Positions 1 through 29,484 of a stretch of DNA of 64,000 bases are shown here, one piece after another. Source of the DNA: a virus; the IMG/VR virus record IMGVR_UViG_3300040801_004793, positions 32,001 to 96,000 of that record. The stretch is one strand, 5' to 3'. The number at the start of each line of letters is the position of its first letter. The first letter of the stretch is position 1. A program made the translations under genes and the position numbers. The notes below the pieces were generated by a model that ran no database searches, was not told the DNA's origin, and worked only from the letters and a program-made list of their open reading frames with translations.

Positions 1-122
1 ATTGACTCTACGGAGTCCACTGGCAAACAGTCTTTGTAGAGAGGCAATTTAGTTTCTCTACTTAGGGGGCCTATCCTCTTTAGGCCTCGTTCGTGTACAC
101 GTCTAAAACACAAAAACACATC

Positions 123-542
123 ATGTCTAACCAAAACAACAACTCCGCTGTCCAGAACCTCGCTGAAGCTCTGGCTAACCTGATCTCTACTACCGCTCCG
201 GCTAACGGCAATGTTGTGCCTACTGTTGTTCCGCCCACGCCCAGCTACGCGGTGAGCCAAACTGCGGCGGTGGCTCCTGTAGCAACTGTTGTGTTGCAAG
301 GCACCGTTAAGCAGCCATCTCTGAGGACGTTCCAGAGCTGGCAGCATCTAGGCTACACCTTGGGCCGTATCAAGGACGAGACCTTCGGTACGGAAATTCG
401 CGCCGACGAAGCTTCCTTAAGCATCAACGGCCAAGCTCCTCAGCCTCTAAGCCTGACGAGCCTCCTGCCCGAAGCCGTTAACGCGGAGGGTATCACCTCT
501 ATCCGCCTAACCTACAGTGTCACCTCTGGCACCAACGGTTAG
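123..542 (+). CDS. Ubiquitin-like (beta-grasp) modifier with N-terminal low-complexity extension
   Basis: ATG at 123. Ends in an exposed Gly (..TSGTNG*). About 85-aa C-terminal domain after an A/V/P/T-rich linker. First gene before JAB, E2 and E1. Codon usage (AAC/ACC/GCT) is distinct from its neighbours. Confidence 0.7.
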   Translation: MSNQNNNSAVQNLAEALANLISTTAPANGNVVPTVVPPTPSYAVSQTAAVAPVATVVLQGTVKQPSLRTFQSWQHLGYTLGRIKDETFGTEIRADEASLSINGQAPQPLSLTSLLPEAVNAEGITSIRLTYSVTSGTNG

Positions 543-555
543 TAGTTCATAGGGC

Positions 556-585
556 TGGGGCTCCCCTCTAAGAGCCCCACTGTTT
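556..585 (+). terminator. Stem-loop after Ubl gene
   Basis: TGGGGCTC-8nt-GAGCCCCA inverted repeat. Confidence 0.55.
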
Positions 586-609
586 AGGTTACGTCAAAAT
601 TTGACAGTC

Positions 610-642
610 AGGAGGGGCCTCAAAACCCCTCCTTTTCTTTTT
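610..642 (+). terminator. Rho-independent terminator/attenuator
   Basis: AGGAGGGG-CCTCAAAA-CCCCTCCT followed by TTTCTTTTT. Confidence 0.7.
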
Positions 643-670
643 GTCAACAACACTACTCACTAAACTGATA

Positions 671-2038
671 ATGACACAGCAAGAAGAAGCAAAAATCACT
701 CCGAAGATTACATCCTCTGGATCTTTCATTCGAAGAGGCGATGAAATTCAACCCCTGATTCAGTACTTTGGGGGCCGTTACTTTTGTCCAATGCAGCATC
801 CTGTATTTCTGGGCTACACGGAGATGACGGACCAGGATCGCCACATGACTAATGAAGAGTTTTTGACTTTTCAAGATCTCAACTTCTGGAATCTTCAACC
901 AAGTCCAGTAGATCCTTCCAAAGTAATTACTTCTACGGGAACTTTTCAAAAAGTCCCTAAAGAAGATTGGATCAAGACGATCAAATTATTTGCTCACTTT
1001 TGTAGAAATGATGGATTCCCTAATGAGTTAGAAGTGGGCTTAATTTTGGCTCTTCACAATGAGAGTCAGACCTTAAGGCTTCTTGTACCCAAACAGTCTG
1101 TGACAAAAGCCAGTGTTAACTGGACAATTTCCGACATTAAATCTGATACCCAAGTAATGGACTTGGATGGAAACCTCATCGTAATGTCGGATTATACTCC
1201 CGTAGGTGTTTTTCATAGCCATAACACTTTCGGGGCCTTCCCTTCTTCAGTAGATAACACTTGTGAGGTAAAAGACACTGCGGGAAAGATTATTCCCACG
1301 GGTTTCCATATGATTCTGGGAAACTTCAAAAACTACGAAAACTACGAGTTTGATGAACCCACTTTTGATACTTACAGTAGCTTCTCTCATCTGGGAGTTC
1401 GCCACCAAGTAACAAGTGAAAAAACCTTTGAGTTCTTTGTGAGTGATGACTTTTCAGTGGAGGAGTACCAACAGAATACCTTTAGCACAAACATTCTAAC
1501 AATCATCACCAGGTCAACTGTTTGGTCGGGCAAAGTTTATACAGGTAAGTCTTATGCGACGAGGCCTTACTCGGGATCTGCCAATTACGTAAACTACCGC
1601 CCGTTTAGAAATCCTGAGCATGAGCAAGCGTACAACAGGATTAGTAAAAAGCACAGAAAAGCTTCTGCTGCTAATCAAGCCTGGAGAACTTCTACAGTAC
1701 CCGCTCTTATCAGGACGGATGCAAAAGAAGCTCTGATTGAGTACGCTATTAGTTGCATGTATGACATCTACGCCACGCTCGTAGATGACTTGAGTGCCGA
1801 CCCTGTGGACTTAATGAAAGAGTTCGAAGCTTGGCATCAGGAAAGTCTTGGTTCAAACAATTCTCTAGAAATGCTCTCGTCTGAGATGTATACTCCTTTA
1901 CCATCTGAGATGTATACCCCTTTGGCAAGTGATGACCCTCTATCTAATGAAGACTACTGGACATCTTCTATTGATGGAGGAGGTCTGGTAGACAACTCAG
2001 CGGATGTAGACAATCCTTTTTACTATCGAGGAAACTAA
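671..2038 (+). CDS. JAB/MPN+ metallopeptidase (Prok-JAB) with long C-terminal extension
   Basis: Upstream Glu (NELEVG) and the motif HSHNTFGAFPSSVD (HxH-x7-S-x2-D). ATG at 671 preferred over TTG at 641. Confidence 0.85.
   Translation: MTQQEEAKITPKITSSGSFIRRGDEIQPLIQYFGGRYFCPMQHPVFLGYTEMTDQDRHMTNEEFLTFQDLNFWNLQPSPVDPSKVITSTGTFQKVPKEDWIKTIKLFAHFCRNDGFPNELEVGLILALHNESQTLRLLVPKQSVTKASVNWTISDIKSDTQVMDLDGNLIVMSDYTPVGVFHSHNTFGAFPSSVDNTCEVKDTAGKIIPTGFHMILGNFKNYENYEFDEPTFDTYSSFSHLGVRHQVTSEKTFEFFVSDDFSVEEYQQNTFSTNILTIITRSTVWSGKVYTGKSYATRPYSGSANYVNYRPFRNPEHEQAYNRISKKHRKASAANQAWRTSTVPALIRTDAKEALIEYAISCMYDIYATLVDDLSADPVDLMKEFEAWHQESLGSNNSLEMLSSEMYTPLPSEMYTPLASDDPLSNEDYWTSSIDGGGLVDNSADVDNPFYYRGN
1880..1927 (+). 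repeat. 24-bp in-frame tandem duplication (SEMYTPLP/SEMYTPLA)
   Basis: tctgagatgtatactcctttacca / tctgagatgtatacccctttggca. Confidence 0.85.
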
Positions 2039-2039
2039 A

Positions 2040-3065
2040 ATGGCGATTGATGACAGTTACACAGTAACGGTTAACCCAAGACCAGACACAATTAAAGGCC
2101 GATTTTGTTTAAGTCACGCACCTACAGCTATTGGTGTACTTCACAGTATTGGGGAACAAGGAACATTCAGTCTTACTGGAGCCTTTATGCCTAGCTATAT
2201 TAGGTATATGGCTTTCCGAGGAATGATTGCTACAGATCTGTTTTGGCAGTTTTGTACTTCTTGTCCTTTGTACCATCAACAAGCTTGTTCTGGAGGAGCC
2301 CCTTTAATTGCTCGGGGAAGAAACGCCCGTCGCAGGTCGGCCAATTTTGTAAATGCAGAAGGCCGTACTCAAACCTGGGACTACGTTGAAGATAATTGCA
2401 AGATGAATTACACGGCCACAGAGCGGGCGGGAAGAACTAATATTACTATTCCCGACCACTTTGCAGCAATTAACGATGGTAGATTTGCGTGGTTTGCAGC
2501 GGAGTATATTCGAAACGAATTTCGATTTACTCCGCTTCGTATGTTTAATACGTACGAATCGGGAAATGTTTGTTTGGGAGAGAACCGTCTTCGGAGCAAC
2601 GCTTCTCTTCCAGAAGTCTATGAAACGTTTCTTAACGGAACAGTCAACAACGATCTCAGACCACTGGCTGCATCTCGGCACTCAAAGACGACTTTAGAGT
2701 GGTGTCAGACCTTTAATTTAGAAGAGCTCAAAGAGGAGGATGACTATCCAGAGAGAACTATAACACAGTTACCTTGCCTTTCCACGACAAACTCAAGAAG
2801 ATTATTTCACGTTTTGCCGCCAAATGTGGCTTTTGTGACTTATCTTCGACTTTCTTCTCCTAACGAATACGTAGACCTATCTCCAGAAGAAAAACAACCT
2901 CGTATTTACCGTGAAAGGTTGTATGTAGCAATTGCAGCTATGTACGATCCCCTCGGAGAAGACCGAGAAGCATATACCTATGTATATGTTCACAACCCCA
3001 CCAAAATAGTGGAAGATGCAGAGCTTCTTAACCGGGTTCAATACGAAGCTGGTAGATCATCATAA
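2040..3065 (+). CDS. Prokaryotic E2-like (UBC fold) protein
   Basis: PLRMFNTYESGNVCLG..F.N...NNDL resembles the Prok-E2 P..N....G.[IV]C.G catalytic motif. Additional Cys cluster CxxC-x7-C. Lies between JAB and E1. Confidence 0.7.
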   Translation: MAIDDSYTVTVNPRPDTIKGRFCLSHAPTAIGVLHSIGEQGTFSLTGAFMPSYIRYMAFRGMIATDLFWQFCTSCPLYHQQACSGGAPLIARGRNARRRSANFVNAEGRTQTWDYVEDNCKMNYTATERAGRTNITIPDHFAAINDGRFAWFAAEYIRNEFRFTPLRMFNTYESGNVCLGENRLRSNASLPEVYETFLNGTVNNDLRPLAASRHSKTTLEWCQTFNLEELKEEDDYPERTITQLPCLSTTNSRRLFHVLPPNVAFVTYLRLSSPNEYVDLSPEEKQPRIYRERLYVAIAAMYDPLGEDREAYTYVYVHNPTKIVEDAELLNRVQYEAGRSS

Positions 3066-3115
3066 ACCGTCGCCACTCTGAAACCAGTCCATCTAAAACA
3101 TAGCAGAGGTCAAGC

Positions 3116-4054
3116 ATGAAAACTTTCGTTCCTGATGAGATCATCCAAATTGGATGCGGAGGCACAGGCTCCCGTTTAGTAGAAGAACTAAAATTTTGGG
3201 TTCGTGGAAATCTAGTTGATCTGCCCAGGTCTTTTTATTACACCTTGGTAGATTTTGATACTGTCGGAGATAGTAATCTAAATCGACAGCTCTTTTATCC
3301 ATGGGACCTGGGTAAGTCAAAAGCTCACGTCTTTGTGGAGCGTTTACGGAATTTGATTAAAATCAGGCAAATTCCAGAACCAATTAACCAAGATACTGTC
3401 AACTTCATCTTTGACGAGGAGCGGCTAAATAAAAAACTAGTGGTTATTTGCTCGGCGGATAACCCTCTAGTTGTTAAACAGGTCATGTTAAAGTTGCTTG
3501 CCGATGCAAGAAACGACTACCTGTGGATCTTTACTGGGGCCAGTCTAGTTAATCACACCTTACATACTGGGGAGTATCTGGAAACGGGGGTTGGACAGGC
3601 TTATGCGTATGGTGTAGTAAACCAAACACCCCTGTTTCCTGTTCCCCCGAATGAGGCCCTGCTAGACATTATGCGGGCTGTGGGTTATGGTCCCACTTCT
3701 ACGGGTAACAACTGTGGGGTAACAACCTCAGGAGGAGCCCAAACGCCCCTCATGAATCACAGTTGTGTAAATGCTGTGTTACAAATTTTCAATGCTCTCT
3801 TTAAGCATGGTAAGTTTATTCCAGCCATCTACTTTGTGGATGGAGTAAGCACCACCTATGCCGAGGCTATTGATGTGGCTACGTTGATGGGTACAGCATC
3901 ACTAGAGCAGCTTTCTGCTTTAGACTCAATTAGTCGGACTCTTTCTTCTCAATCGGCGTCTGAAAATGATGACTATGACTATGAGGACGAGGACGAAGAG
4001 GATGAGGATGAGGAAGAGGAGTACGATGATTACTTCGACGATGATGAGCACTAA
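3116..4054 (+). CDS. E1/ThiF-family adenylating enzyme
   Basis: IGCGGTGS nucleotide loop, VDFDTV..SNLNRQ, G.SKA, SADN, candidate catalytic Cys (NNCG), acidic tail. Confidence 0.92.
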   Translation: MKTFVPDEIIQIGCGGTGSRLVEELKFWVRGNLVDLPRSFYYTLVDFDTVGDSNLNRQLFYPWDLGKSKAHVFVERLRNLIKIRQIPEPINQDTVNFIFDEERLNKKLVVICSADNPLVVKQVMLKLLADARNDYLWIFTGASLVNHTLHTGEYLETGVGQAYAYGVVNQTPLFPVPPNEALLDIMRAVGYGPTSTGNNCGVTTSGGAQTPLMNHSCVNAVLQIFNALFKHGKFIPAIYFVDGVSTTYAEAIDVATLMGTASLEQLSALDSISRTLSSQSASENDDYDYEDEDEEDEDEEEEYDDYFDDDEH

Positions 4055-4074
4055 CTAGTGTTGACTTCTAGATG

Positions 4075-4098
4075 GTAGGGGTAGTAAAATACCCCTAC
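4075..4098 (+). terminator. Stem-loop after E1
   Basis: GTAGGGGTA-6nt-TACCCCTAC. Confidence 0.5.
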
Positions 4099-4125
4099 TC
4101 GCCTGTAAACCTAAAACAAAAACAA

Positions 4126-4449
4126 ATGAAACTACCACCTGATCTACTGCGAGTGTTACACGAGAATCGGTCCTCTTTACCCCCATCGGTTTTAGAAATG
4201 ATACCGACTCTCTTTGTTAAGGAAGACTTTATTGATCTGGAGGAAGATTCTAGAGAAAAAGTACTAGCACTAATTCGGGATATTTGCTTTATTCTTTTGG
4301 AAGAATTTCCCGAGTCCGATGAGGATAATCCTCAGATGGACAAATTAGCGTCCTTAGAAGATAAGCATCTAATTGCCCTTCTTAAACATTCAATGAAAGC
4401 TGACAGTTTAAAGCTTACAAAGCGAGGCAAAAGAGCTTCCGAAGATTAA
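4126..4449 (+). CDS. Hypothetical protein
   Basis: ORF; ATG at 4126 lies downstream of the hairpin. Confidence 0.6.
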   Translation: MKLPPDLLRVLHENRSSLPPSVLEMIPTLFVKEDFIDLEEDSREKVLALIRDICFILLEEFPESDEDNPQMDKLASLEDKHLIALLKHSMKADSLKLTKRGKRASED

Positions 4450-4502: not shown

Positions 4503-5081
4503 ATGACTACACCAGTACTAGAATACGTTAAAACAAGTCAGGCTTTACATCCTGTAAAAGCTCACGAAACAGACGCTTGCTATGATATTTTTGTTGATTT
4601 ATCAGAAGCACCTACTCTAAAAAGTAATGCTTTAAAGGGTATGGTATCTCCGAATTCAAATGCTATAGATTTTTCCTTGGAGTCGAAAGAAATTCCTATC
4701 TATCCAGCGTATAACGGAACTTTGTATGTAGATCTTCCCCCTATGTCTGTGACTATTATTCCAACGGGATTATTTTTTAATATTCCGGATGGTTATAGAG
4801 TAGACATTAGAAGCCGTTCTGGAAGGTCTACTACAGGACAATTTTTAGCTAATGGCGTTGGTACTATAGACCAAGACTACCGAGACGAGATTAAAGTTAT
4901 TCTCTTTAACTTTGGTCTAGAGTCTCGTATTCATCAGGGGGATAAGATTGCTCAAATGATGCTCTGCTCTTCAGAGCCCTCTTTGACACAAAGCGTCCTT
5001 TCTGAGTATAATAGAGGAACTTCTCTTCCCTGGCAAAACTCTAACAATAGAGGTGGAGGTCTAGGAAGCACTGGAAACTAA
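4503..5081 (+). CDS. dut: Trimeric dUTPase
   Basis: ACYDI, RSRSG, GTIDQDYR.EI, GDKIAQ, RGGGLGSTG motifs. Confidence 0.95.
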   Translation: MTTPVLEYVKTSQALHPVKAHETDACYDIFVDLSEAPTLKSNALKGMVSPNSNAIDFSLESKEIPIYPAYNGTLYVDLPPMSVTIIPTGLFFNIPDGYRVDIRSRSGRSTTGQFLANGVGTIDQDYRDEIKVILFNFGLESRIHQGDKIAQMMLCSSEPSLTQSVLSEYNRGTSLPWQNSNNRGGGLGSTGN

Positions 5082-5093
5082 CTCTTAAAAACT

Positions 5094-5264
5094 ATGATTC
5101 TTGGGGCTATTACTTTTTTTATCGTGGGGTGCTTTTTTACAAAAAGTATTCTATTTTCTACCCCAAAAAAGAAAAAAGTAAAAAGCCCCCAAGAAATTCA
5201 AGAAGAATTACTAAACCAGTTGTTATTAAATCACTTTGAATATATAAAAAAAGCTAAAAAATAA
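5094..5264 (+). CDS. Small membrane-anchored protein (56 aa), not in the ORF track
   Basis: MILGAITFFIVGCFF...KAKK*. Fills the dut-thyX gap, and its stop abuts the thyX ATG. Confidence 0.65.
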   Translation: MILGAITFFIVGCFFTKSILFSTPKKKKVKSPQEIQEELLNQLLLNHFEYIKKAKK

Positions 5265-7001
5265 ATGGATAAGAATACTGGTATACGGGTAGTAACCTCC
5301 TGTTCTAACCCTCTAACATTAACCTACCTAGCTGCTCATAGGGATTATTCCGAATGTTTATCGGTTATGGATTCTCCTCCCTCTTATTTACCTAAAACAG
5401 AGGAAGAAGCGGGGGAAAAAATTCTTAGAATGCTTCTAAAAAAGAGGCACTTTGGTCCGTTAGAGCACCCTCACGCTACAGTAGAAGTCGTAGGCTTTCC
5501 CCACAGCGTTGCAGTTCAGGCCAGAACTCATAGAATTGCCTTTTGCCTGGATGAAGATACCCGTATTCAATTTTCTCGCAAGCCTCAAAAAAGAGGGAGA
5601 AGAGTACAAAATTATTCTGTTCCATTAAAAGATCTAGCTAATCTATGGTTTAACGGAATCAAAGATCAACGAGATCCCTACTTTGGAAGGCACTATGTTA
5701 GGGATAAAAGACTTCGGTATTTTAATCCCTCCACTAAAAAGATTGAATACACCAACATTACTAATATTTATAATACGGGAGTTAAAACTCTATATAAAGT
5801 TTCTACTGAAGGAAATAATTTCATTCAAGGTTCTGAAGACCATAAAATTCTAACAACCAACTCTGATCTATCTTCTTTTGAGTGGAAAGAGATTAAAAAT
5901 CTTACAACAGAAGATTATGCAATTCGCATGTCTTATAAACCTAATAATCCACCAGTAAAAGAAGATATTACTTTTACTGAAGAACAGTTGGAATCTGAGG
6001 AGTGGCGTCCAGTAGTTGGTTTTGAAAGATACTACCAGGTTAGTAACTTAGGTCGTTTGCGAAGTTTATTTGATTCGGAGCCTAAACTAAAATCTGTTGT
6101 CACAGGCCCAACGGGTTATAAATATGCTTCTCTTCATAGAAAAGAAATCATCTACTTACATACAGAAGTATTAAAAGCTTTTGTAGGACCTCCGCCGGAA
6201 GGAAAAAATAAGGCTTTACATAAAGACGACAATCGTAAGAATAACTGTCTTTCTAACTTATATTGGGGAGATAGCTCTGACAACCAAGCAGATCTAACGA
6301 GAAATGCCGGAGGCAGATCTTTTCAACCCGTACCGGCTAAAATTATTTCTATTGAATGTGTAGGCGAAAAACAGACCTATGACATTGAAGTAAAAAGTAA
6401 ATATAGAAACTTTTTTGCTAATAATCTCGTAGTTCATAATAGCTTTGATGTACAAAGTCAAAGGTATACGGGAAAAAGAGTAGTTGATTTAATAAATATT
6501 TTTCTAGAGTTATTTCCCGATAGAGATCCCAATGGTGAAGGTAGAAGGCTAATAATTTCAAAACTTCTACAGAACGAAGAACTCTCTGAAAAAGAAAGAC
6601 ACTTTGTAGATCAGTTACAAAAAGTTTTTTACGTTAGACCTGCTGGAAAATATCATAATAGGCAAGGGAAAAGATACGAAGTTAGCGAAGAAGAAGTCTT
6701 AAAAAGATACTTCTTTAACAAAATTTCATCCTCTCTTGACTACTATGATCTTGTTGTTACTAAGGGTGTGGCTGAAGAAGATGCCAGGGATGATCTGCCT
6801 CAAGGAATAAGGCAAGGTTTTTTTATGACCTTTAACCTTAGATCTTTGATGCATTTTCTTGATATGAGGTATAAAGCCGATGCCCAGCCGGAAATTATCT
6901 ACTTGGGAGAACTTTTAATAGAATTTTTTAAGGTCTGGGCAGGGCCGGTAGCAGAGTTCTATATCAAAAATAGGGCAAATAAAAACAATGTTGCACCCTA
7001 A
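5265..7001 (+). CDS. thyX: Flavin-dependent thymidylate synthase, intein-containing
   Basis: HFGPLEH, QARTHR...SFDVQSQRY (after splicing), AEEDAR..LPQ, FNLRSLMHFLDMR, AQPEI. Confidence 0.95.
   Translation: MDKNTGIRVVTSCSNPLTLTYLAAHRDYSECLSVMDSPPSYLPKTEEEAGEKILRMLLKKRHFGPLEHPHATVEVVGFPHSVAVQARTHRIAFCLDEDTRIQFSRKPQKRGRRVQNYSVPLKDLANLWFNGIKDQRDPYFGRHYVRDKRLRYFNPSTKKIEYTNITNIYNTGVKTLYKVSTEGNNFIQGSEDHKILTTNSDLSSFEWKEIKNLTTEDYAIRMSYKPNNPPVKEDITFTEEQLESEEWRPVVGFERYYQVSNLGRLRSLFDSEPKLKSVVTGPTGYKYASLHRKEIIYLHTEVLKAFVGPPPEGKNKALHKDDNRKNNCLSNLYWGDSSDNQADLTRNAGGRSFQPVPAKIISIECVGEKQTYDIEVKSKYRNFFANNLVVHNSFDVQSQRYTGKRVVDLINIFLELFPDRDPNGEGRRLIISKLLQNEELSEKERHFVDQLQKVFYVRPAGKYHNRQGKRYEVSEEEVLKRYFFNKISSSLDYYDLVVTKGVAEEDARDDLPQGIRQGFFMTFNLRSLMHFLDMRYKADAQPEIIYLGELLIEFFKVWAGPVAEFYIKNRANKNNVAP
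5544..6440 (+). mobile_element. Intein (299 aa) with NUMOD4 + HNH homing endonuclease
   Basis: Starts at C1 (CLDEDT), has block B (SEDHKIL) and block F (TYDIEV), ends VVHN followed by a +1 Ser. Contains EEWRPVVGFERYYQVSNLGR (NUMOD4) and HKDDNRKNNCLSNL (HNH). Confidence 0.93.
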
Positions 7002-18778: not shown

Positions 18779-19024
18779 ATGCACAGAATCCTCTTTACAT
18801 ATCCGAGTCAACCTGGTAGGATAGCTTTAGCTAATGTATCCTACCAACACCCTAATAAAGCCATCTGGTCTTTTCAAAAACCGCTTACACCACAACAGCT
18901 AGAAAAAATCTATAAGCTAGCTAGGTCTATGTCTCCAATGCCCATAAAACCTTTGCTAGTGGAGCATCAAATATATCAAAATAATTGTTGGCATACAATC
19001 CTTACCACAAAAATAACAAGATGA
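18779..19024 (+). CDS. Hypothetical protein
   Basis: ORF with ATGA overlap to nrdJ. Confidence 0.6.
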   Translation: MHRILFTYPSQPGRIALANVSYQHPNKAIWSFQKPLTPQQLEKIYKLARSMSPMPIKPLLVEHQIYQNNCWHTILTTKITR

Positions 19025-21651
19025 AACTGAAAACAACTTTTATTCCATCCGAGAAAATTAAAAACTTTGATAAAAAAGGAGAAAAAGATACTCCTTTTGG
19101 CCCTGTAGGACAGCTTGTTGATATTCGAACTTATCGACGCTTTCTTCCTGAGAAACTTAGAAGAGAGACTCTTGGTGAGAGAAACGCTAGAGTTGTTGAC
19201 TACAATATTCAATTAGGTTTGCCTTTTGATAATGTTAGTGATTTATTAAACGATGCTAATCACTTTTACGACTCTTTAGGCACTTTAAAGTATTGGCCCA
19301 GCGGTAGAACAGCCTGGGTAGGAGGCACAAAAACTACAGAACTACATCCCGCAGCAAACTTTAATTGCAGTTTTCTGGCAATTAATAGACTAGAGGCTTT
19401 CATAGATTTAGCCGAGTTACTGATGCTAGGCACGGGAGTGGGATTTCGACTTCATTCCAGAGATTTAGAAAAATTGCCGGATATTAAAAACATTCCATCG
19501 GTACATTTTTCTGAGTATAAGTATATTAAAAATAAAAGCTTCAAAGATACTCAGATTGCTCTAGTACCTTACAATTTAAACCAGGATGCTTTAATTATTG
19601 ATGTTGGTGATAGTAGAAAGGGTTGGCTAGATTCTATTAGAGTGTTGTTAGCTCTAATTTTTCAGAGCGATGAAAGTTTTCCGCATCTAAATCTTTATGA
19701 TGATGCTAAAGAATTTATTCTCTCAAATAAAGAAAATAAAATAGTAGAATTTAACTTTAATTATGTGAGACCAAAGGGCTCTAGAATTAAAGGTTTTGGA
19801 GGAACGGCCTCTGGCCCTCAAGCTCTAAAAGAAATTCTGAGAGATATTTTACAAATTTTAAAAGATAGATTTGATACCGGAACTACAAGAGTTTTATCTA
19901 TTGATGCAATGGATATCGCTTGTGCCTCTGCAAGAGGTATTATTGCCGGAAGTAGCAGTAGATCGGCTCTTATTCCCTTATTTGAACAGGGAGATCTCCT
20001 ATGTAGAAATTCTAAAAAGGGCTTATATACGAATCCAGAGATGGCTTCTAAGTCCTATCGAGCTCAGTCAAATATTACAGAGAACATCGGAGCTGACCCC
20101 GAGAGTCTAGAGAAAATCAGGCAATTTGCAATTAATAACCCTACACTATCTATCCAGGATTTAAAAGTAAGAGAATTTATCAAAACTTTTAGACCGGATA
20201 AAATCGAACTTACTCGCATGTTCGAAACCGTTAGATCAGAGGGGGAGCCTGGGTTTGATAATTGGGCTAGAATGTGTCTTATTCGGTTCTATGCTGCCAT
20301 CCGCAAAAGACCTCAATACACACCAGAACAAATCTGGGAGTATTACTGTGATATCGGTACTAACCCATGCCACGAAATTATTCTTAGTGCGGGATTTCAG
20401 ACTAAAGATCAAGTTAGCTTCTGTAATCTTACGACGATTGCAGTTACGAACCATATTGTTTACATTAATGGTGTTCCAGAGTTAGATGTAGAAAGTCTAA
20501 AAGAAGCTTTTGAGAGAACCGTAAGAATTGCTATTCGACAAACTTGTGTCGATATGCCCTACCCTCACATGGACGAGTGCCAAAAAGAAGAGAGGCTCTT
20601 AGGTGTTTCTTCTACGGGTTGGAGAGATCTTATGGATATTCTAGGCTGGGAAACCAACGGTTCTAAAATTAAAGACCTTCTTCAGAATTGTAAAAAGTGG
20701 GCTAACGAGGAATCGGAAAGGTATAGTAAAAAGCTTGGTATTCCTACTCCTCTACTAGTTACTACTATTAAACCTGAGGGTACGGCTAGTCAGATAATGG
20801 GTACTAGTAGTGGATTGCATTGGGATTGGGCTCCCTACTATTTAAGAAGAATTAGAATGTCTTCTTCGGACGCTCTCGCAAAAACGCTAATTAAGCAAGG
20901 GTTTAATTGGTACCCAGAAATCTATGACCTTGAGACCTGGTACCATACGTATGCAAGATCCCTTTCTACGTATCTAACAGAAATTGGAAAGCATAAACAA
21001 AAGCCCGTTGTCCGAAGTTCCAATGTTCTTCTTGCTTGGTTACAATCCCTGGCATCAATCTTTAGTAGAAAAGACAATTCTTTAGACTCTTTTTATGACT
21101 ACACTACTTTAGAAAAAGAGTGGAGTCGTTTGGATGTAGAGTCTAAACTAAAGGTCTTTTCTAATTTACTTTCGTACGAGAAAGAAGAAATTTTGGATTC
21201 TATTCAATCAGTTGTTTTAGAGTTTCCTGTAAAATCTCCTGCTAAAATTTGCCAGAGCGAAGTTACTGCTCTTGAGCAATTAGAAAATATGCGGAATTTT
21301 ACTCTCTATTACTGTGACCATATGCCTTCTAGTACTATTACGGTAAAAGACGACGAATGGGAGCAAGTGATAGATTGGGTCTATGATAACTGGGATACCT
21401 TTACAACAGCGGCCTTTCTGCCTTACTTTGGAGGTAATTATCCGCTTCTTCCTTTCCAAACGATTGACGAAGAAGATTATAAAAATGCTATTGCTTGTAT
21501 TCCAGACATTTATAAACAGCAGAGAGAGGATGGAAGATGTACCTTTTTAGTAGATCAATTAACTCTGATGGATGAAGAAATTAAATTAGAAGATCCCGAT
21601 GATGTGGATGTTTCTCCGACTTGTTCTACGGGAACTTGTCCTGTAAGATAA
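19021..21651 (+). CDS. nrdJ: Class II (AdoCbl-dependent) ribonucleotide reductase, monomeric RTPR type
   Basis: RTY.R, PSGR..W.GG, NFNC, LM.G.GVG, GTNPCHEI, FCNL, TTIKPEGT, C-terminal CSTGTCPVR; no beta-subunit gene nearby. Confidence 0.93.
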   Translation: MKLKTTFIPSEKIKNFDKKGEKDTPFGPVGQLVDIRTYRRFLPEKLRRETLGERNARVVDYNIQLGLPFDNVSDLLNDANHFYDSLGTLKYWPSGRTAWVGGTKTTELHPAANFNCSFLAINRLEAFIDLAELLMLGTGVGFRLHSRDLEKLPDIKNIPSVHFSEYKYIKNKSFKDTQIALVPYNLNQDALIIDVGDSRKGWLDSIRVLLALIFQSDESFPHLNLYDDAKEFILSNKENKIVEFNFNYVRPKGSRIKGFGGTASGPQALKEILRDILQILKDRFDTGTTRVLSIDAMDIACASARGIIAGSSSRSALIPLFEQGDLLCRNSKKGLYTNPEMASKSYRAQSNITENIGADPESLEKIRQFAINNPTLSIQDLKVREFIKTFRPDKIELTRMFETVRSEGEPGFDNWARMCLIRFYAAIRKRPQYTPEQIWEYYCDIGTNPCHEIILSAGFQTKDQVSFCNLTTIAVTNHIVYINGVPELDVESLKEAFERTVRIAIRQTCVDMPYPHMDECQKEERLLGVSSTGWRDLMDILGWETNGSKIKDLLQNCKKWANEESERYSKKLGIPTPLLVTTIKPEGTASQIMGTSSGLHWDWAPYYLRRIRMSSSDALAKTLIKQGFNWYPEIYDLETWYHTYARSLSTYLTEIGKHKQKPVVRSSNVLLAWLQSLASIFSRKDNSLDSFYDYTTLEKEWSRLDVESKLKVFSNLLSYEKEEILDSIQSVVLEFPVKSPAKICQSEVTALEQLENMRNFTLYYCDHMPSSTITVKDDEWEQVIDWVYDNWDTFTTAAFLPYFGGNYPLLPFQTIDEEDYKNAIACIPDIYKQQREDGRCTFLVDQLTLMDEEIKLEDPDDVDVSPTCSTGTCPVR

Positions 21652-22089: not shown

Positions 22090-24057
22090 ATGAATTTTAA
22101 AGACTACTTTCATGAATCTATAGGCCTTGCTGTATGTAACTCTTCTTTTGAGTACTTGTGGCACTCTGCTTCGTGGCCTCAATTATTTGGTAAAAAAGAA
22201 AAATCCTACATAGGAGAATCTCATTTTAAATTTTTAGAAACCGTTCCTTATGCTTGGGAAAAAGATTACAATCAAGTATTGAGTACTTCTGGTTATTCCG
22301 TAACTTATAAACCTGAATGGTTTAATAACCAGGCTCTTCTTCATTCTGTTTCAGTGTTAGAAAATAATCTAATTCTGATTCTTTGCTTAAACGTTTCAGA
22401 AGTTACAAGGTTTAAAGAATCTCTCTATAAATTTCAAGATTGCAGTATGACAGGTAAAGCAATCTTTAGAAAAGAAGGAGAAAATTTTAGAATAGTCTAC
22501 TGGAATAAATATGCCGCTACTAAAAATCCGGGAATAAATCTTGAAGGCTCTATCTTATCTAATACTTTTTTTTCGAATGCTAGGTTAGAGTTGGAAGAAG
22601 AAAAAACTTTTATAGATTTTTGTTTCGAAGTTTTAGAAACTCAAACTTCTGATCTTACAGAAATAAAGTTAGAGGCCTTAGAAAAGTATTATCTTATTAC
22701 GCTCTTTCCCATAAGTGAAACAGAATTGGGTTGTGAATGGTTCGATATAAGTTCTAAAATTGAATTTTTTCAAAAAACACAATTTGAATTAATACATGAT
22801 AACTTAACAGGCCTATTTAATAGAAAACTTTTAGGCAGTCAATCAATAGAGTTTGACTACATTCTCTTTTTAGACTTAGATAATTTTAAAAGTGTCAATG
22901 ATTTTTATACCCACTCTGTTGGAGATAAACTTTTACAAATAGTAGCTCAGAGAATTTCTCAAGTTGCTAAAAACCAAGTTGCAGTTAGAGTTTCTGGTGA
23001 TGAGTTTTTCATTCTAGTAAAGGGTAAAACCGAGAAAGAGGTTTTTGAGCTTGCTGTTGAAATCTGTAGTGTCCTAAAACAACCTTATCTAATTCAAAGC
23101 TTTATTATTAAAAATGTGTCTTGTTCTTGTGGTATAGCTAAGTTTTCAAAGGATGTAGATACTACGGTAAGAAAAGCGGATCTTGCTATGTACCAAAGTA
23201 AGGCTTTAGGTAAGTCTGACAAAGAGGCTTCTGGTATTCCTATTTGGTACGAAGAGAGTATGGGAGACTCCCATACTAGACAACATAAACTTTTAAAACT
23301 TCTTTATCAAGCAATTCAAAAAAATGCTTTTGATATAGTTTTACAACCTTTTGTAAATCTTCAAGAATTAAACGAAGAAAATCCTAAAAAAACACCGAAG
23401 GTAGGATACGAAGTTTTAGTTCGTTGGAATACTCCTTCTGGACCTATTCCTCCGTCTGAGTTTATTCCTATAGCTGAAGATCACGGCTATATTACAGCAA
23501 TCACTCTGTTAGTGTTATCTCAAGCCTGTAAAGCCTGTAAAGAAATAAATAGAGTCTCTAAATACCCTCTTTATCTATCTGTAAACGTATCAGGTCAAGA
23601 CTTGTCTAATAAAAGACTCAAAGATAGCATTGATATGTTGCTAGAAGAGTCGGGATTAGACTATAATCTAATTAAGTTTGAGATTACTGAGTCTGTTATT
23701 CCTTCCATACAAGAGGCAGAAAATACAGTTCAGTATTTAAATTCAGAGGGTCTCAAAAGTTTGTTAGATGATTTTGGAACTAAGGGAAGCTCTCTAACTC
23801 TTATGTTTAGTCTTTCTGTAGAAGGAATCAAAATTGATAGAGATTTCATTATTAACTGGACTGATTCCGTACAACATATTATTGGGCTAGGACACAGTAA
23901 AGGACTGTCTGTTGTTTGTGAAGGAGTAGAGAGTTTAGAAATTGCACAAAAGTTAAAACGCGCCAAAGCCGATATTGGACAAGGCTTTTTATTCGGAATG
24001 CCTTTATCTCTGGAAGATACTATTGAGGAATTACTCGAAAATGAAGAAAACAATTAA
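22090..24057 (+). CDS. PAS-like + GGDEF + EAL diguanylate cyclase/phosphodiesterase
   Basis: HDNLTGLFNR, DLDNFKSVND..H..GD, SGDEF, ADLAMY; EVLVRW, P.EFIPIAE, SVNVS, EITES, DDFG, KIDR, EGVE, QGF. Confidence 0.95.
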   Translation: MNFKDYFHESIGLAVCNSSFEYLWHSASWPQLFGKKEKSYIGESHFKFLETVPYAWEKDYNQVLSTSGYSVTYKPEWFNNQALLHSVSVLENNLILILCLNVSEVTRFKESLYKFQDCSMTGKAIFRKEGENFRIVYWNKYAATKNPGINLEGSILSNTFFSNARLELEEEKTFIDFCFEVLETQTSDLTEIKLEALEKYYLITLFPISETELGCEWFDISSKIEFFQKTQFELIHDNLTGLFNRKLLGSQSIEFDYILFLDLDNFKSVNDFYTHSVGDKLLQIVAQRISQVAKNQVAVRVSGDEFFILVKGKTEKEVFELAVEICSVLKQPYLIQSFIIKNVSCSCGIAKFSKDVDTTVRKADLAMYQSKALGKSDKEASGIPIWYEESMGDSHTRQHKLLKLLYQAIQKNAFDIVLQPFVNLQELNEENPKKTPKVGYEVLVRWNTPSGPIPPSEFIPIAEDHGYITAITLLVLSQACKACKEINRVSKYPLYLSVNVSGQDLSNKRLKDSIDMLLEESGLDYNLIKFEITESVIPSIQEAENTVQYLNSEGLKSLLDDFGTKGSSLTLMFSLSVEGIKIDRDFIINWTDSVQHIIGLGHSKGLSVVCEGVESLEIAQKLKRAKADIGQGFLFGMPLSLEDTIEELLENEENN

Positions 24058-24671: not shown

Positions 24672-25478
24672 ATGCTCCGAGAAAATGAATTACCTCTTAA
24701 GTATCCCGGATCAAAGAGGTGGCTTTTTAAATACCTTAAAAAATTAAACTTAGACTTAGACGTTGGGTGGGTATCGCCATTCTGCGGTTCCTGTGCTCTA
24801 GAGTTTTTATTCGGTGTAGAAAAAGCCACTCTCTCTGATATCAACAGTCATCTTATAAAATGTCTTCTCTGGCTAAAGTCTGGTCAGGGTTTAACCTATC
24901 CATATCAACCTTCCCGAGAAGAGTTTTATAAACTGAGGTCTTTTTTTAATCAAATTAGAGATACCGAAGACGAAAGAATAGGCCAACTTTTTTGGCTTGT
25001 CCTTTATTCTGCCCACAGAGGCTCTTGTAGAACAAATCTCAAGGGGGAGATTAATAGTTCTTGGGGAGAGTATAAAGGCCTTCCTTCTAAACCTTTCGAT
25101 AAGTACCCCGCTATAATGGAAAAGTGGAGTATTTCTTGTTCCCCCTATGAAACAGCTCTAGCCAACTGCAATAAAGATTCTATTCTTCTTTTAGACCCAC
25201 CGTATTTAAATACAGGTAAAGTTTATGGTCGCCCCTCTTTTAATCTATCTCAAACAGAAAATCTATTAAAACTGACCTTAGATCATCAAGGTCCAATTAT
25301 TGCAACTAATTCATACTGGTCAGAGGGTCTTGAACTCTATGCCGATTTTGGCTATACTATAATGAAAGCGGAGTCCAACCAGAGCTTTCATCACGGAAAA
25401 AATAAAGAAGGTAAAGCTTCAGAGCTTTTAGCCTTTAAAAATGTAAACCTGCCATCACAATTATTAGATAATGTCTAG
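24672..25478 (+). CDS. dam: Dam-like (D12 class) N6-adenine DNA methyltransferase
   Basis: PLKYPGSK, PFCGS, SDIN, DPPY; target sequence not determinable here. Confidence 0.85.
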   Translation: MLRENELPLKYPGSKRWLFKYLKKLNLDLDVGWVSPFCGSCALEFLFGVEKATLSDINSHLIKCLLWLKSGQGLTYPYQPSREEFYKLRSFFNQIRDTEDERIGQLFWLVLYSAHRGSCRTNLKGEINSSWGEYKGLPSKPFDKYPAIMEKWSISCSPYETALANCNKDSILLLDPPYLNTGKVYGRPSFNLSQTENLLKLTLDHQGPIIATNSYWSEGLELYADFGYTIMKAESNQSFHHGKNKEGKASELLAFKNVNLPSQLLDNV

Positions 25479-26121
25479 AATTTCTTCTTCGTACACTGAG
25501 GGTCTTTCCAACGGAGACCTGGGTTTTAGTAATCTTTTAGTGGGAGATACAATTTCTAAGGGCTCTCATTTTAGTTCGGTATATTCTTCTATTGAATGGC
25601 TTCAGCATCGCCTTCAAAATATATCTTATAATGAGCCCTCTTTTGTAGATAATTTTCCAAGAGATGCTGCTTTTATATCCTGGCTCTATGAAGCTCTGTA
25701 TAGTCTAAGTTCCTTTTGTTATCTAAAAGGAATAACTGACGTGAATTATGGACACGTTCCACCTCAAGAATCTATAGAATTTTTAAAAACCCGAATATCT
25801 GAACTAAAAGATTTAGAGGAAAACCTTACAGGAAAGAAGGCTGAATCTGATTTTGTAACTCTATCGGGATCTCTTAACACTATTCGTTTGTCAGTAAGAG
25901 ATGTGGAAAGACACTTTGTAGGCTGGTTTCACAACGAAAGAGTAATAACTCACGAGATTGCAAAGAATCCCGAAATATTAGAAGGTATCTATAGATACGA
26001 AACATTTCTAAATAGACTCAGTAGTTATTTCTACTGGCTATCCCGAGTTTACATTATTAAAAATACTGGCGTTCAGGCTCTTAAGCCTTGGAATGCTAAG
26101 ATCCCACCTTTTAACGTATAA
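25471..26121 (+). CDS. PduO-like ATP:cob(I)alamin adenosyltransferase
   Basis: GD.G.S.L..G..ISK N-terminal ATP motif, R..VR..ER, FLNRLS.YFY.L.R. Confidence 0.7.
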   Translation: MSRISSSYTEGLSNGDLGFSNLLVGDTISKGSHFSSVYSSIEWLQHRLQNISYNEPSFVDNFPRDAAFISWLYEALYSLSSFCYLKGITDVNYGHVPPQESIEFLKTRISELKDLEENLTGKKAESDFVTLSGSLNTIRLSVRDVERHFVGWFHNERVITHEIAKNPEILEGIYRYETFLNRLSSYFYWLSRVYIIKNTGVQALKPWNAKIPPFNV

Positions 26122-28635: not shown

Positions 28636-29484
28636 ATGAATCACACCTTTATTCTTAACACTCCCTCAAAAGCACCCGATCTTTACATTGGTGACTTGGT
28701 AGAAAATACAAATGCTTTGAGAGACGATATTGGACCCTTTCTTATAAATCTGGTTAATCAAAAGAAAGCTAGACTTAGAACAGATTTAAATCACTTTTAT
28801 TTCCCTGCGATGAGGGAAACTTTTCTTTATACTGCTAGAAGCACTAGTGTTATTAATCTAGGATCTAGTAGTGTTGTCTATTACCTTTCAGAAGAAGATC
28901 TAGAAAACGATCATCTTCAGTGGCTTTTAAAAGTTTCCGGGAAAAGTGTGTCGGACCTTTTAACAGAACGGCGAACTAATACTACTGAGTATTCATTAGA
29001 GAGGCTGTATAGTTCTAATCCTGGTGCTCAGTATGGCCTTTATTATATACTTAGGAAATTTTATAATTTTTCTAATTTTTATAACGAGGAGCCGGGTCAA
29101 ATTAATTTTCCGCAAAGGGGTTTAAAAGTACTTAGTACTTTGTTTCCATCTTTAAATTTTCAGCGTATCAGTATTACGAATTACTACGGTGTGTATAAAT
29201 TTTTGTCTGCTCTATTTGCACTTATTTCCCCACGAGGAATCTACTACCTTTCTGAAGGCAACTTTTTAGAGGGGAAAAGAGAAATGTCTAACAGCCTCTT
29301 ACTTTTTAGTAAGACGAGGGGCATATCAAAACTAGGTTATGACTTTTCTAAATTAGAATATGACAGCTTTCCAAATAGTCAAAGAGCAGTTGTGACTTTA
29401 GCCCAAAAATTAAAAATACCAGTCTATAACCTCTACTACCCTGTAGATAGAAAACACATTATTCGTAATGTGTTCTATTGCTGA
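28636..29484 (+). CDS. Hypothetical protein (weak SLOG/DprA-like C-terminus)
   Basis: A...A..L.IPVYNL ending; otherwise unrecognised. Confidence 0.55.
   Translation: MNHTFILNTPSKAPDLYIGDLVENTNALRDDIGPFLINLVNQKKARLRTDLNHFYFPAMRETFLYTARSTSVINLGSSSVVYYLSEEDLENDHLQWLLKVSGKSVSDLLTERRTNTTEYSLERLYSSNPGAQYGLYYILRKFYNFSNFYNEEPGQINFPQRGLKVLSTLFPSLNFQRISITNYYGVYKFLSALFALISPRGIYYLSEGNFLEGKREMSNSLLLFSKTRGISKLGYDFSKLEYDSFPNSQRAVVTLAQKLKIPVYNLYYPVDRKHIIRNVFYC

Follow-up and report, generated by a model that had tools for sequence, protein, structure and literature searches.

Operon type 6d, in the description of Iyer, Burroughs and Aravind 2006 (PMC1779556), corresponds to the PRTRC cassette (NCBIfam TIGR03735-03742). 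PRTRC-type cassettes are present in GenBank genomes of the phages Arash, Vibrio D69, and BgVeeders33, and one in a Burkholderia prophage has already been noted in print (PMC13366799). The analysis found no experimental study of a PRTRC-type cassette, so conjugation is a predicted step for the whole class. Among comparable four-part sets of bacteria, Bil alone has been shown to take part in defence against phages. In CBASS Cap2/Cap3 and Bub, E1 is fused to E2, JAB to E1, or Ubl to E2, with a CD-NTase or a DUF6527 protease alongside (bioRxiv 10.1101/2024.11.21.623966).

The locus analysed here lies in a 64,000-nucleotide window (positions 32,001 to 96,000) of a 121,016-bp uncultured virus (IMG/VR record IMGVR_UViG_3300040801_004793), which has direct terminal repeats, is rated 100% complete, and encodes a Mu-like portal and a 2633-aa tape measure. 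Four tightly spaced genes, all on the plus strand, occupy positions 123-542, 671-2038, 2040-3065, and 3116-4054 of the window, with gaps of 1 and 50 bases among the last three. The initial annotation had read them as a complete phage-borne ubiquitin-like (Ubl) conjugation operon in the order Ubl, JAB, E2, and E1. The four frames were found where it had placed them, the motifs that it named are present in the translations, and the phage setting was confirmed, as were the E1, the JAB with an intact active site, and the E2. Upstream starts extend the first two frames (93/123..542 and 641/671..2038); alignment with the syntenic relative (L005) favoured initiation at ATG (123 and 671) over the upstream GTG and TTG. 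As had also been noted, the cassette stands just upstream of nucleotide and replication genes (dUTPase, ThyX, DnaB-like helicase, PolA, and RNR), and gene order and position suggest that it is expressed alongside the early/middle replication genes.

Comparison of sequences makes it highly probable that the E1, the E2, and the JAB are homologues of their PRTRC-type counterparts. The E1 (3116..4054, plus strand; 312 aa) scored over the cut-off of Pfam ThiF (E 1.6e-9, 37.7 bits; cut-off, 28.1 bits). Its best NCBIfam match was PRTRC_ThiF (TIGR03736; E 4.3e-17, profile positions 13-231 of 245), at a sub-threshold 62.2 bits against a curated cut-off of 144.75. GCGGTGS and D-x-D...SNLNRQ, the nucleotide-binding and Arg-finger motifs, were invariant in 11/11 relatives; the 10 E1 relatives recovered were 49-62% identical. 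Cys200 and Cys217 are invariant across the family, and Cys200 aligned with a Cys of one canonical PRTRC ThiF. The best PDB matches of the E1 profile were the adenylation domains of UBA6 and SAE2, and weak matches were obtained to CBASS E1-E2 fusion models of PADLOC (E 3.7e-5 and weaker) and to 6A-MBL cap2_3 (E 4.5e-5). The C-terminal tail of the protein (about residues 275-312) is acidic.

The JAB/JAMM metallopeptidase (671..2038, plus strand; 455 aa, or 465 aa from the TTG at 641) matched Pfam Prok-JAB with an E value of 9.1e-5 and 22.8 bits, below the 25-bit cut-off, and its homologue in the relative matched with an E value of 2.1e-3. Profile comparison with the JABs of PRTRC_A, D69, and Arash was stronger (hhalign 97.4%, E 1.2e-11, 90 columns). 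The E/HxH/S/D active site is intact (NELEVG ... HSH-x7-S-x2-D), with the H, H, S, and D invariant in 4/4 aligned JABs. The catalytic core spans about residues 90-200 and is accompanied by a long C-terminal extension that ends in ...DNPFYYRGN.

The E2-like protein (2040..3065, plus strand; 341 aa) carries FNTYESGNVCLGEN. An exhaustive HMMER search recovered 11 homologues, and across the resulting family of 12 there is almost no variation at N170, G175, C178, and G180. The UBC-like core, with a catalytic-type Cys178 (FNT..G.VC.G), is split at about residues 61-128 by a family-specific insert of ~70 residues with four conserved cysteines (C72, C75, C83, and C120). No curated model matched the protein itself; 4/12 family members matched Prok-E2_D (PF14460), all below threshold (best E 3e-4), and two relatives matched PRTRC_B weakly. 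The family profile aligned with Prok-E2_D proteins, catalytic Cys included (hhalign 88.4%, E 2.8e-6), and a language-model lead also indicated Prok-E2_D. The UBC fold that the initial annotation had predicted was reflected in weak matches of an AF2 model (pLDDT 65): UBC E2 chains made up 18 of the best 50 VIA structural matches listed, covering 93-127 residues at Z 3.8-5.1, where Z 4-5 is a range that the search tool itself terms common. Foldseek searches of the model against PDB and BFVD returned nothing at E<=1e-3 and no UBC match. Taken together, the alignments and the model give good support to 2040..3065 as a putative divergent Prok-E2_D enzyme.

The candidate modifier, ORF1 (123..542, plus strand), is 139 aa long, or 149 aa if read from the GTG at 93. 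Its N-terminal helix is followed by a linker rich in Ala, Pro, and Val and by a C-terminal domain of ~85 aa, whose Gly-rich tail ...SVTSGTNG stops at the Gly. The helix and linker (~55 residues) are unusual and were counted against a Ubl reading. Neither sequence nor profile searches linked ORF1 to Prok_Ub (hhalign 0.1%), to ThiS, or to a family in Pfam, PHROG, or NCBIfam, and PDB sequences gave no match either. The missing Pfam match is weak counter-evidence, because 2/2 control phage Ubl candidates (that of Arash and one D69 repeat), both GTKG-ended, failed Pfam as well. The genome held no other Prok_Ub or ThiS candidate. ORF1 occupies the 5' position, as does the Ubl in BgVeeders33, Arash, and D69, and a homologue with 33% identity, M1 aligned, and the G-x-N-G tail kept stands at the equivalent position in the relative. 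On balance, we lean toward ORF1 as the modifier of the three enzymes. The E1, JAB, and E2 identities were supported, but with ORF1 as a putative beta-grasp Ubl the description of the operon as complete is provisional. The initial annotation had further argued that a Ubl needing no maturation would leave the JAB as a deconjugase. ORF1 does end at Gly, but its homologue in the relative has two additional residues (..NGLG) after the aligned NG, so trimming of the modifier by the JAB may still occur in the family.

Directly 3' of ORF1 is an intrinsic-terminator-like hairpin followed by a T-run (610..643, plus strand), found by hairpin scan and folding, with an 8-bp GC-rich stem at 610-633; a second 8-bp hairpin lies near 556-579. 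The relative has a hairpin and T-run of different sequence in the matching place, and a conserved terminator would yield modifier in excess of the enzymes. The same terminator, standing between ORF1 and the enzymes, also fits a less probable reading, in which the E1-E2-JAB module is real and ORF1 is not its modifier. ORF1 would then be a separate abundant small alpha/beta protein, possibly a tail-terminator-like sandwich, or a target or decoy, and the substrate of the E1 would be a ThiS/MoaD-like protein of the host or a phage protein that has escaped recognition; use of endogenous ThiS/MoaD by such mobile operons was considered by Iyer et al. (PMC1779556). The absence of Ubl similarity is in keeping with this reading, as is codon usage sharply unlike that of the enzymes (GC3 of 0.636, versus 0.35-0.43 in the enzyme genes and 0.23-0.43 across other genes). 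The sole model of ORF1 (AF2, single-sequence) was not beta-grasp-like in appearance, and no beta-grasp protein was among its 50 listed structural matches; phage tail-terminator/neck proteins headed that list and took up about 23 places in it (Z 4.7-7.8, 100-118 residues). However, a pLDDT of 47.8 is too low for the model to be relied on, and Z 7.8 is, by the structural tool's own note, a typical top score for unmatched models. Furthermore, ORF1 matched no PHROG or Pfam tail protein, the virion module is remote and on the opposite strand (29.5-64 kb), the linkage to the cassette and the Gly-ended tail are conserved, and a small Gly-ended protein opens all related phage cassettes.

With ORF1 as the modifier, a scheme can be proposed, each step of which is drawn from knowledge of the families. 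A separate, terminated transcript would supply ORF1 in excess. The ThiF-type E1 would adenylate the C-terminal glycine of ORF1, probably take ORF1 onto Cys200, and pass it to the Prok-E2_D-type E2, where Cys178 would carry it as a thioester before it is joined to lysines of target proteins. The four-Cys insert of the E2, probably zinc-binding, may serve in place of an E3 as a module that docks targets or the E1. The JAMM peptidase would undo the conjugates and, in relatives with the two-residue extension, might trim the modifier. The proteins tagged may belong to the phage or to the host. Covalent protein tagging is an evenly balanced prediction for the output of the cassette.

The identical four-gene set, in identical order and with matching flanking genes, was found at one relative locus (L005/L006), with gaps of 1-2 bases. 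Two genes, X (204 aa; L002 10747-11361) and Y (221 aa; L002 11374-12039), precede the cassette in both phages; the 3' end of Y falls in the window (1..39, plus strand), and Y is 28% identical to its homologue in the relative. The X/Y stretch had no PRTRC_F-type similarity (hhalign 0.1%) and no match in family searches. A conserved 125-aa ORF lies immediately downstream of the E1 (4072..4449, plus strand), with no family match apart from weak PADLOC noise; at the equivalent place in L006 is a 115-aa ORF, the two being compared by size and position. This ORF and the upstream genes are taken as genomic context of the cassette.

Several 129-141-kb contigs carry E1 homologues, among them one of 141,365 bp; an E2 homologue is also listed on a 141,365-bp contig, probably the same one. 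In the best explanation, which as a whole is slightly favoured, the cassette is a fixed backbone feature of one group of uncultured phages ~120-140 kb in size. Its fixed position and conserved flanks look like those of a core gene set rather than of a variable defence islet. These same features, together with the spread of the E1 homologues, speak against a role of the proposed mechanism in inter-virus conflict, either as a Bil-like defence disabling the structural proteins of competitors or as a counter to conjugation-based host immunity. Such a role would accord with the higher GC of the cassette relative to its flanks, with the antiviral activity of the characterised bacterial Ubl operons (Bil), and with the protection from invasive replicons that Iyer et al. 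(PMC1779556) proposed for these mobile operons. It is nevertheless improbable; no PADLOC model was matched except weakly, by the E1, those of CBASS type.

JAB, Ubl, and E1 sets occur in sulfur metabolism and the E1 matches ThiF/MoeB equivalogs (E 3e-10 to 1e-2), but a non-conjugating adenylation or sulfur-carrier pathway (ThiF/ThiS, MoeB/MoaD, or CysO-Mec type) yielding a cofactor or thiocarboxylate is very improbable, since those scores are all far under cut-offs (40 versus 159 bits and lower), there is no rhodanese domain, the neighbours lack thiamine/Moco genes, as initially noted, no ThiS-like frame was found in the whole 121-kb genome, and an E2 with a conserved Cys has no sulfur-transfer role.

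The initial annotation had named both PRTRC-type and Bil/Bub-type systems; the affinities of the E1 (TIGR03736), E2 (Prok-E2_D/PRTRC_B), and JAB (PRTRC_A-type) are specifically with operon type 6d/PRTRC and not with Bil/Bub. The cassette shares E1, E2, and JAB chemistry with CBASS Cap2/Cap3 and Bub, in addition to the weak E1 matches, but its four genes are separate and neither a CD-NTase nor a DUF6527 protease is among the neighbours. Separate genes for the four functional parts are also found in Bil (BilA, Ubl; BilB, E2; BilC, JAB; BilD, E1), as presented in bioRxiv 10.1101/2024.11.21.623966. In contrast, the Ubl candidate, JAB, and E2 described here match no PADLOC model, the sequence affinity of the cassette is to Prok-E2_D/PRTRC rather than to Bil, and the cassette is part of a phage backbone, whereas Bil is located in a bacterial defence island.

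Phage-borne sets of Ubl, E2_D, JAB, and E1 are likewise carried by Salmonella phage Arash (OQ632216) and Vibrio phages D69, D181, and D148 (OZ195729 etc.), which are cultured and lytic and whose cassettes are annotated merely as hypothetical or "structural". With PRTRC-type cassettes already in deposited phage genomes, the novelty initially implied by carriage of the machinery on a phage was overstated. The Arash and D69-group E2s share F-N-x-D-L after the catalytic Cys with the E2 family described here, and the Arash Ubl stops exactly at Gly, as does ORF1. However, these phages keep the PRTRC order, with a large helical protein between Ubl and E2; their Ubls have TGTKG as the C-terminus, align with PRTRC_C, and in D69 are present as three tandem copies; their E1s are just about 39-44% identical to this E1 over the first ~70 residues; and tblastn with this E2 recovered none of their cassettes.

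Compared with the PRTRC cassette, exemplified by Burkholderia phage BgVeeders33, the gene order is Ubl(?)-JAB-E2-E1 rather than E-C-F-B(E2)-A(JAB)-ThiF. The ParB, E, and F components are absent, searches of the JAB revealed no DUF2016 domain, and the E2 has its four-Cys insert. In hhalign comparison, the His stretch C-terminal to the Cys of PRTRC_B (FTHPN) aligns with VNNDL here. The candidate modifier is N-terminally extended and bears no sequence relation to Prok_Ub, and in this comparison with PRTRC all scores are under curated cut-offs. In common with PRTRC, the locus has a ThiF-type E1 with PRTRC_ThiF as best model, a Prok-E2_D/PRTRC_B-type E2 without the classical E2 His (FNT replacing HPN), a Prok-JAB peptidase, a first gene for a small protein with a terminal Gly, the E1 as last gene, and carriage on a mobile element. 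We consider it somewhat probable that the cassette derives from operon type 6d/PRTRC by lineage-specific reordering, trimming, and strong divergence.

The four plus-strand open reading frames reported in the initial annotation are present at 93/123-542 (ORF1, the candidate modifier), 641/671-2038 (JAB), 2040-3065 (E2) and 3116-4054 (E1), with all of the motifs quoted for them, and alignment with a syntenic relative favored translation from the ATG codons at positions 123 and 671. The proposal that these genes form a complete Ubl-JAB-E2-E1 conjugation operon held for the E1, JAB and E2, which could be identified by homology, but was not shown for the Ubl, as ORF1 lacked similarity to Prok_Ub proteins (hhalign, 0.1%). 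Judged from sequence comparison, the cassette belongs to the known operon type 6d/PRTRC kind, of which it represents a new variant that has diverged strongly.

The gene order is the same in this phage and on L005 and L006, two small metagenome contigs that apparently come from one related phage: X and Y (conserved genes upstream of the cassette), the ORF1 homologue, JAB, E2, E1, a small ORF, dUTPase and ThyX with an intein. The small ORF encodes 115 amino acids in the relative versus 125 here (orf125, 4072..4449), and the JAB-E2-E1 junctions of the relative have gaps of 1 to 2 bases. Because order and flanks are retained in this relative, the cassette is considered part of the phage backbone rather than a variable islet. 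DNA of relatives was obtained from this one locus only, by metagenome profile search; no further relatives' DNA was found in IMG/VR viral contigs or in a metagenome search with the E2 set, and a search of reference genome contigs with the E1 alignment yielded no relative. For one E1 homologue and one E2 homologue, the source contig has the same length, 141,365 bp. The GC content of the first 4 kb (0.44 to 0.46) is higher than that of most of the window (0.33 to 0.40), and the GC3 of ORF1 (0.636) exceeds that of the three enzyme genes (0.35 to 0.43) and of neighboring genes (0.23 to 0.34). Recent horizontal acquisition might account for such values but was rejected, as the cassette and its flanks are kept in the relative at only 33 to 50% protein identity.

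The E1 matched Pfam ThiF above the cut-off (E = 1.6e-9), and its top NCBIfam model was PRTRC_ThiF (TIGR03736; E = 4.3e-17, profile positions 13 to 231 of 245), with a score of 62.2 bits that falls short of the curated cut-off of 144.75 bits; the canonical protein of Burkholderia phage BgVeeders33 scores 288.6. Ten relatives of this E1 were found at 49 to 62% identity, several on contigs of 129 to 141 kb. All members of the 11-sequence alignment share the glycine-rich loop, D-x-D, N-x-x-R-Q, the ADN motif, Cys200 and Cys217; the nucleotide-binding and Arg-finger motifs of a generic E1 adenylation domain are present in 11/11 sequences. Cys200 aligns with a Cys in the PRTRC ThiF of BgVeeders33. 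Among PDB sequences, the E1 profile matched UBA6 (E = 7e-6) and SAE2 best, in each case at the active adenylation domain. A ThiF/ThiS or MoeB/MoaD sulfur-carrier pathway is very unlikely: the ThiF and MoeB equivalogs all scored below PRTRC_ThiF (the best ThiF equivalog reached 40 bits, far from its cut-off of 159), no ThiS was detected in the genome, and, as initially described, there are no thiamine or Moco genes nearby.

The E1 family has acidic C-terminal tails, which end in Pro-Phe in 6/11 members (associated with relatives P0015, P0017, P0018, P0020, P0023 and P0024) and in Val-Trp in 1/11. The tail in this phage (3940-4054) is acidic and ends in DDDEH, not Pro-Phe. Bacterial SSB has an acidic C-terminal tip ending in Pro-Phe, which the family tails with this ending resemble.

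The JAB scored just under the cut-off of Pfam Prok-JAB (22.8 versus 25 bits), as did that of the relative. Its JAMM site, E...HSH-x7-S-x2-D, is intact, with no variation at the H, H, S and D positions among the four aligned JABs. A profile of two family members matched a profile of three PRTRC_A-type JABs (hhalign, 97.4%; E = 1.2e-11); the 90 aligned columns take in both the Glu and the metal site. Neither a DUF2016 N-terminal domain (Pfam) nor a match to TIGR03735 (NCBIfam) was found, and nothing relevant was recovered from PDB sequences with the JAB profile. The C-terminal ~250 residues are family specific. D-x-P-F-Y is located a few residues from the C-terminal end of both JABs, here and in the relative.

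The E2 itself matched no curated family in Pfam, PHROGs, NCBIfam or PADLOC; a word-indexed homologue search returned only the query, tblastn found no match in 50,697 phage records, and its profile had no match among PDB sequences. When 1.84 billion representatives were searched exhaustively with HMMER, 11 homologues were recovered, including 9 at E ≤ 1e-10. In the resulting 12-member alignment the motif F-N-T-x-x-S-G-x-x-C-x-G, followed by Y-E-x-F...N-x-D-L-x-P...W, is nearly invariant. Four of the 12 members matched Prok-E2_D (PF14460) at E values of 3e-4 to 0.04, below the cut-off, and two relatives weakly matched PRTRC_B (TIGR03737; E = 0.0025 and 0.062). Comparison of the family profile with three Prok-E2_D proteins (BgVeeders33 PRTRC_B and those of Vibrio phage D69 and Salmonella phage Arash) gave a match of 88.4% (hhalign; E = 2.8e-6) that placed Cys178 opposite the conserved Cys of the Prok-E2_D profile.

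For the UBC fold expected of the E2, structure prediction gave weaker evidence than profile comparison. The AlphaFold model from 12 sequences (mean pLDDT, 65; pTM, 0.67) is well predicted in the core (residues 130 to 260) and poorly at 61 to 128. Foldseek searches of PDB and BFVD with this model gave nothing at E ≤ 1e-3. With VIA, a structure aligner independent of Foldseek, 18 UBC E2 chains were among the best 50 rows (Z, 3.8 to 5.1), in alignments of 93 to 127 residues covering model residues ~9 to 230; four unrelated small-domain rows ranked above them (Z, 5.2 to 5.4). Because Z values in this range are common according to the tool, the UBC matches are regarded as supporting evidence only. 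Four cysteines are conserved within the poorly modeled insert (61 to 128), C72, C75 and C83 almost without exception and C120 in 10 of the 11 members whose sequence extends over it, which points to a putative zinc site.

The assignment of ORF1 (123-542) is less straightforward. ORF1 had no match in Pfam, PHROGs, NCBIfam or PADLOC, and its homologue in the relative was likewise without a family match. No homologue was found by word-indexed search, there was no usable ESM Atlas match and no PDB sequence match, and BLASTP against the D69 poly-Ubl and PRTRC_C gave nothing significant. The homologue in the related phage is 137 amino acids long, occupies the same position and is 33% identical over its full length; an N-terminal L-A-N-L helix, a P-S-Y motif, a K-Q-P-x-L-x-T block and the G-x-N-G tail are kept, with the homologue extending two residues beyond the tail (..NGLG) and, like ORF1, having Gly as its last residue. 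A GC-rich hairpin plus T-run (610-643 in this phage), different in sequence, lies directly 3′ of both genes. The syntenic homologue and the shared hairpin arrangement indicate that ORF1 is a real and conserved gene. It is set off from the enzymes physically and probably also at the level of transcription, an arrangement that would give the modifier in excess.

Some results speak against ORF1 as a Ubl. The two ORF1 sequences were compared with five Prok_Ub-type sequences (PRTRC_C, the 66-amino-acid ORF of Arash and three D69 repeats), and hhalign gave 0.1% both at full length and with C-terminal domains only. The silence of Pfam says little, because the Arash ORF and one D69 repeat, although TGTKG-ended and aligning with PRTRC_C, also failed to match any Pfam family. 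Searches for Prok_Ub (six frames) and ThiS revealed no other candidate in the whole genome. Viewed by eye, the last ~45 residues resemble ThiS/MoaD in having a hydrophobic-x-hydrophobic-N/D-G turn and, after it, a last strand with the Gly tail, a likeness that no tool supported. The single-sequence AF2 model was unusable (pLDDT, 47.8). With that model, about 23 of the best 50 VIA rows were phage tail-terminator/neck proteins (Z, 4.7 to 7.8, the upper value being typical for unmatched models according to the tool), and no beta-grasp, ubiquitin, ThiS or MoaD chain was among these 50, an absence that model quality makes uninformative. The tail-terminator-like matches are nevertheless counted against a Ubl, though the model is not trusted. 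In a complex prediction of E1 (alignment A3, residues 1 to 262) with the C-terminal domain of ORF1 (alignment A4, residues 50 to 139), the scores were 0.00 and 0.29, below a mark of 0.32, and speak neither for nor against an interaction. The beta-grasp fold initially anticipated for this protein did not emerge, and its assignment as the modifier, based on context, tail and conservation, is favored by a small degree.

The source virus record is 121,016 bp long with direct terminal repeats, and its completeness is rated 100%. Fourteen of 45 larger ORFs scanned had Pfam matches at E ≤ 1e-5, identifying a Mu-like portal, a 2,633-amino-acid tape measure, PolA with an exonuclease domain, a DnaB-like helicase, a class II RNR, ThyX, RuvC and a Dam methylase; the portal, the tape measure and other matches indicate a tailed phage. 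The PolA matched 10 phage records at ~25% identity, 9 of which were Nodularia siphoviruses (weak matches), and the ORF at 30916-32913 had no match among phages. Sequencing runs from the same sample are labeled microbial mat. An intein that bears a homing endonuclease of the NUMOD4/HNH type splits the ThyX gene (5265-7001, plus strand), an arrangement also present in the related phage (L006, 1792-3519). Genes for a B12-dependent class II ribonucleotide reductase (18985-21651) and a cobalamin adenosyltransferase (25471-26121) occur together on the plus strand. A 655-amino-acid GGDEF plus EAL protein (22090-24057, plus strand; Pfam E = 1e-26 and 4.6e-44), a cyclic-di-GMP turnover enzyme, is encoded inside the replication/metabolism module and had no close relative in reference genomes. 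The tape-measure-type protein (47708-55609, minus strand) has a PhageMin_Tail domain and is followed by ORFs of 841, 1,140 and 1,494 amino acids without family matches. Upstream of the window (L002, 9337-10509; genome positions 29337-30509), four tandem paralogues of 96 to 98 amino acids share the motifs Y-x-P-K and F-K-K-D-A, and eight tRNA genes are scattered over the 17-kb stretch that holds them.

Comparable cassettes exist in other phages, as revealed by tblastn with the E1 against 50,697 phage records. Five records matched, and PRTRC-type cassettes are present in BgVeeders33, in Vibrio phages D69, D181 and D148, and in Arash. The Vibrio phage cassette consists of a three-repeat Ubl, a 233-amino-acid protein, E2_D, JAB and E1. 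The D69 protein of 263 amino acids (L004, the locus in OZ195729; 1388-2179) has three tandem ~60-residue repeats, each TGTKG-ended and the last one preceded by an acidic spacer, and is a predicted polyubiquitin-like precursor of the PRTRC_C type. In the D69 E1 region (4975-5945), the N-terminal Rossmann part (tblastn, 5001-5201) lies outside the annotated CDS (5190-5945) in another frame, and a small minus-strand CDS is annotated over it; this discrepancy, identical in three phages, may reflect a frameshift, a mistake in sequencing or misannotation. The Arash cassette comprises an unannotated 66-amino-acid ORF ending in RRTGTKG-stop, a 320-amino-acid protein, E2_D, JAB and E1. This ORF (L007, 107-307) is probably the cassette's Ubl; in its place the Arash record (OQ632216) gives gp251c (102-320), which overlaps it and is read in a different frame. 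According to PMC10585845, LC-MS of Arash particle preparations detected 116 proteins, Gp246, Gp247, Gp248, Gp249 and Gp251 among them; RNA polymerase and RNR were also present in these preparations. This is evidence of expression at most, and gene numbering may differ between paper and record.

A kinship with host defense systems of the Bil/CBASS type was also considered. PADLOC 2.0.0 should include Bil/ISG15-like models, and in a PADLOC scan CBASS-type E1-E2 models matched the E1 only, with none for the Ubl, JAB or E2. The operon compositions of Bil and Bub were drawn from bioRxiv 10.1101/2024.11.21.623966. The cassette here belongs to the backbone of large, lytic-looking phages and adjoins their replication genes, which favors a role in the infection cycle of the phage itself over one in host defense.

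A broader scheme, speculative and on balance improbable as a whole, would make ORF1 a new kind of modifier, either non-beta-grasp or extremely diverged, with an N-terminal helix and flexible linker. Made in excess, it would be conjugated through its terminal Gly by the PRTRC-derived E1 and the zinc-insert E2 without an E3. The acidic E1 tails, SSB-tip-like with a Pro-Phe end in 6/11, would bring the machinery to the replication/repair hub, and the phage would tag proteins of DNA metabolism, its own or the host's, while its genome is being replicated. If true, this would open the 6d/PRTRC class as a whole to functional study for the first time. The cassette is of interest mainly as a minimal, rearranged and backbone-fixed form with an unexplained modifier. 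This uncultured phage is a poor experimental system; Arash, the Vibrio D69-group phages or heterologous expression would be more tractable.

Operons of the 6d/PRTRC type are widespread on plasmids, ICEs and phages and have been catalogued since 2006. Among the matches listed, papers mentioning PRTRC were by title genome or transcriptome reports, and no paper was found that tests PRTRC-type or phage-encoded PRTRC-type systems. A PRTRC cassette is described in a Burkholderia gladioli prophage and BgVeeders33 in a 2026 paper, which states that its function has so far not been studied (PMC13366799). The partition function implied by its label there, 'ParB/ThiF partitioning cassette', was rejected for the phage studied here, which has no ParB. 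PRTRC protein B of a Phocaeicola prophage is reported as a variation hotspot in a 2026 preprint (10.64898/2026.10.01.756045). Operon type 6d, as outlined by Iyer et al. in 2006 (PMC1779556), comprises a Ubl, a JAB, an E1, an E2 without the classical His and an alpha-helical protein, with Table 1 of that paper giving, in row 6d, a conserved His on the C-terminal side of the catalytic Cys of the E2.

The canonical PRTRC cassette of BgVeeders33 consists of E, C (Prok_Ub), F, B (Prok-E2_D), A (DUF2016 plus Prok-JAB) and ThiF, all above cut-offs. Here, in contrast, the places of the JAB and E2 are swapped, ParB, E and F are absent (ParB_N was detected nowhere in the genome), and DUF2016 was not detected. 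No PRTRC model matched X, Y or orf125, and comparison of Y with the F-type set gave 0.1% (hhalign). The candidate modifier is longer than PRTRC_C and unrelated to it in sequence, the E1 has an acidic tail, and the E2 a four-Cys insert, both unlike PRTRC. The FTHPN of PRTRC_B, with its His C-terminal to the Cys, lies opposite VNNDL in this E2 (hhalign; family consensus, N-x-D-L), so that the conserved His of type 6d is missing; the Arash and D69 E2s have F-N-x-D-L in the corresponding region. With ParB, E and F absent, gene order swapped, a four-Cys module built into the E2 and the modifier replaced or unrecognizable, this lineage shows how far such a cassette can be stripped and rearranged while E1, E2 and JAB are kept, which narrows the minimal working core.
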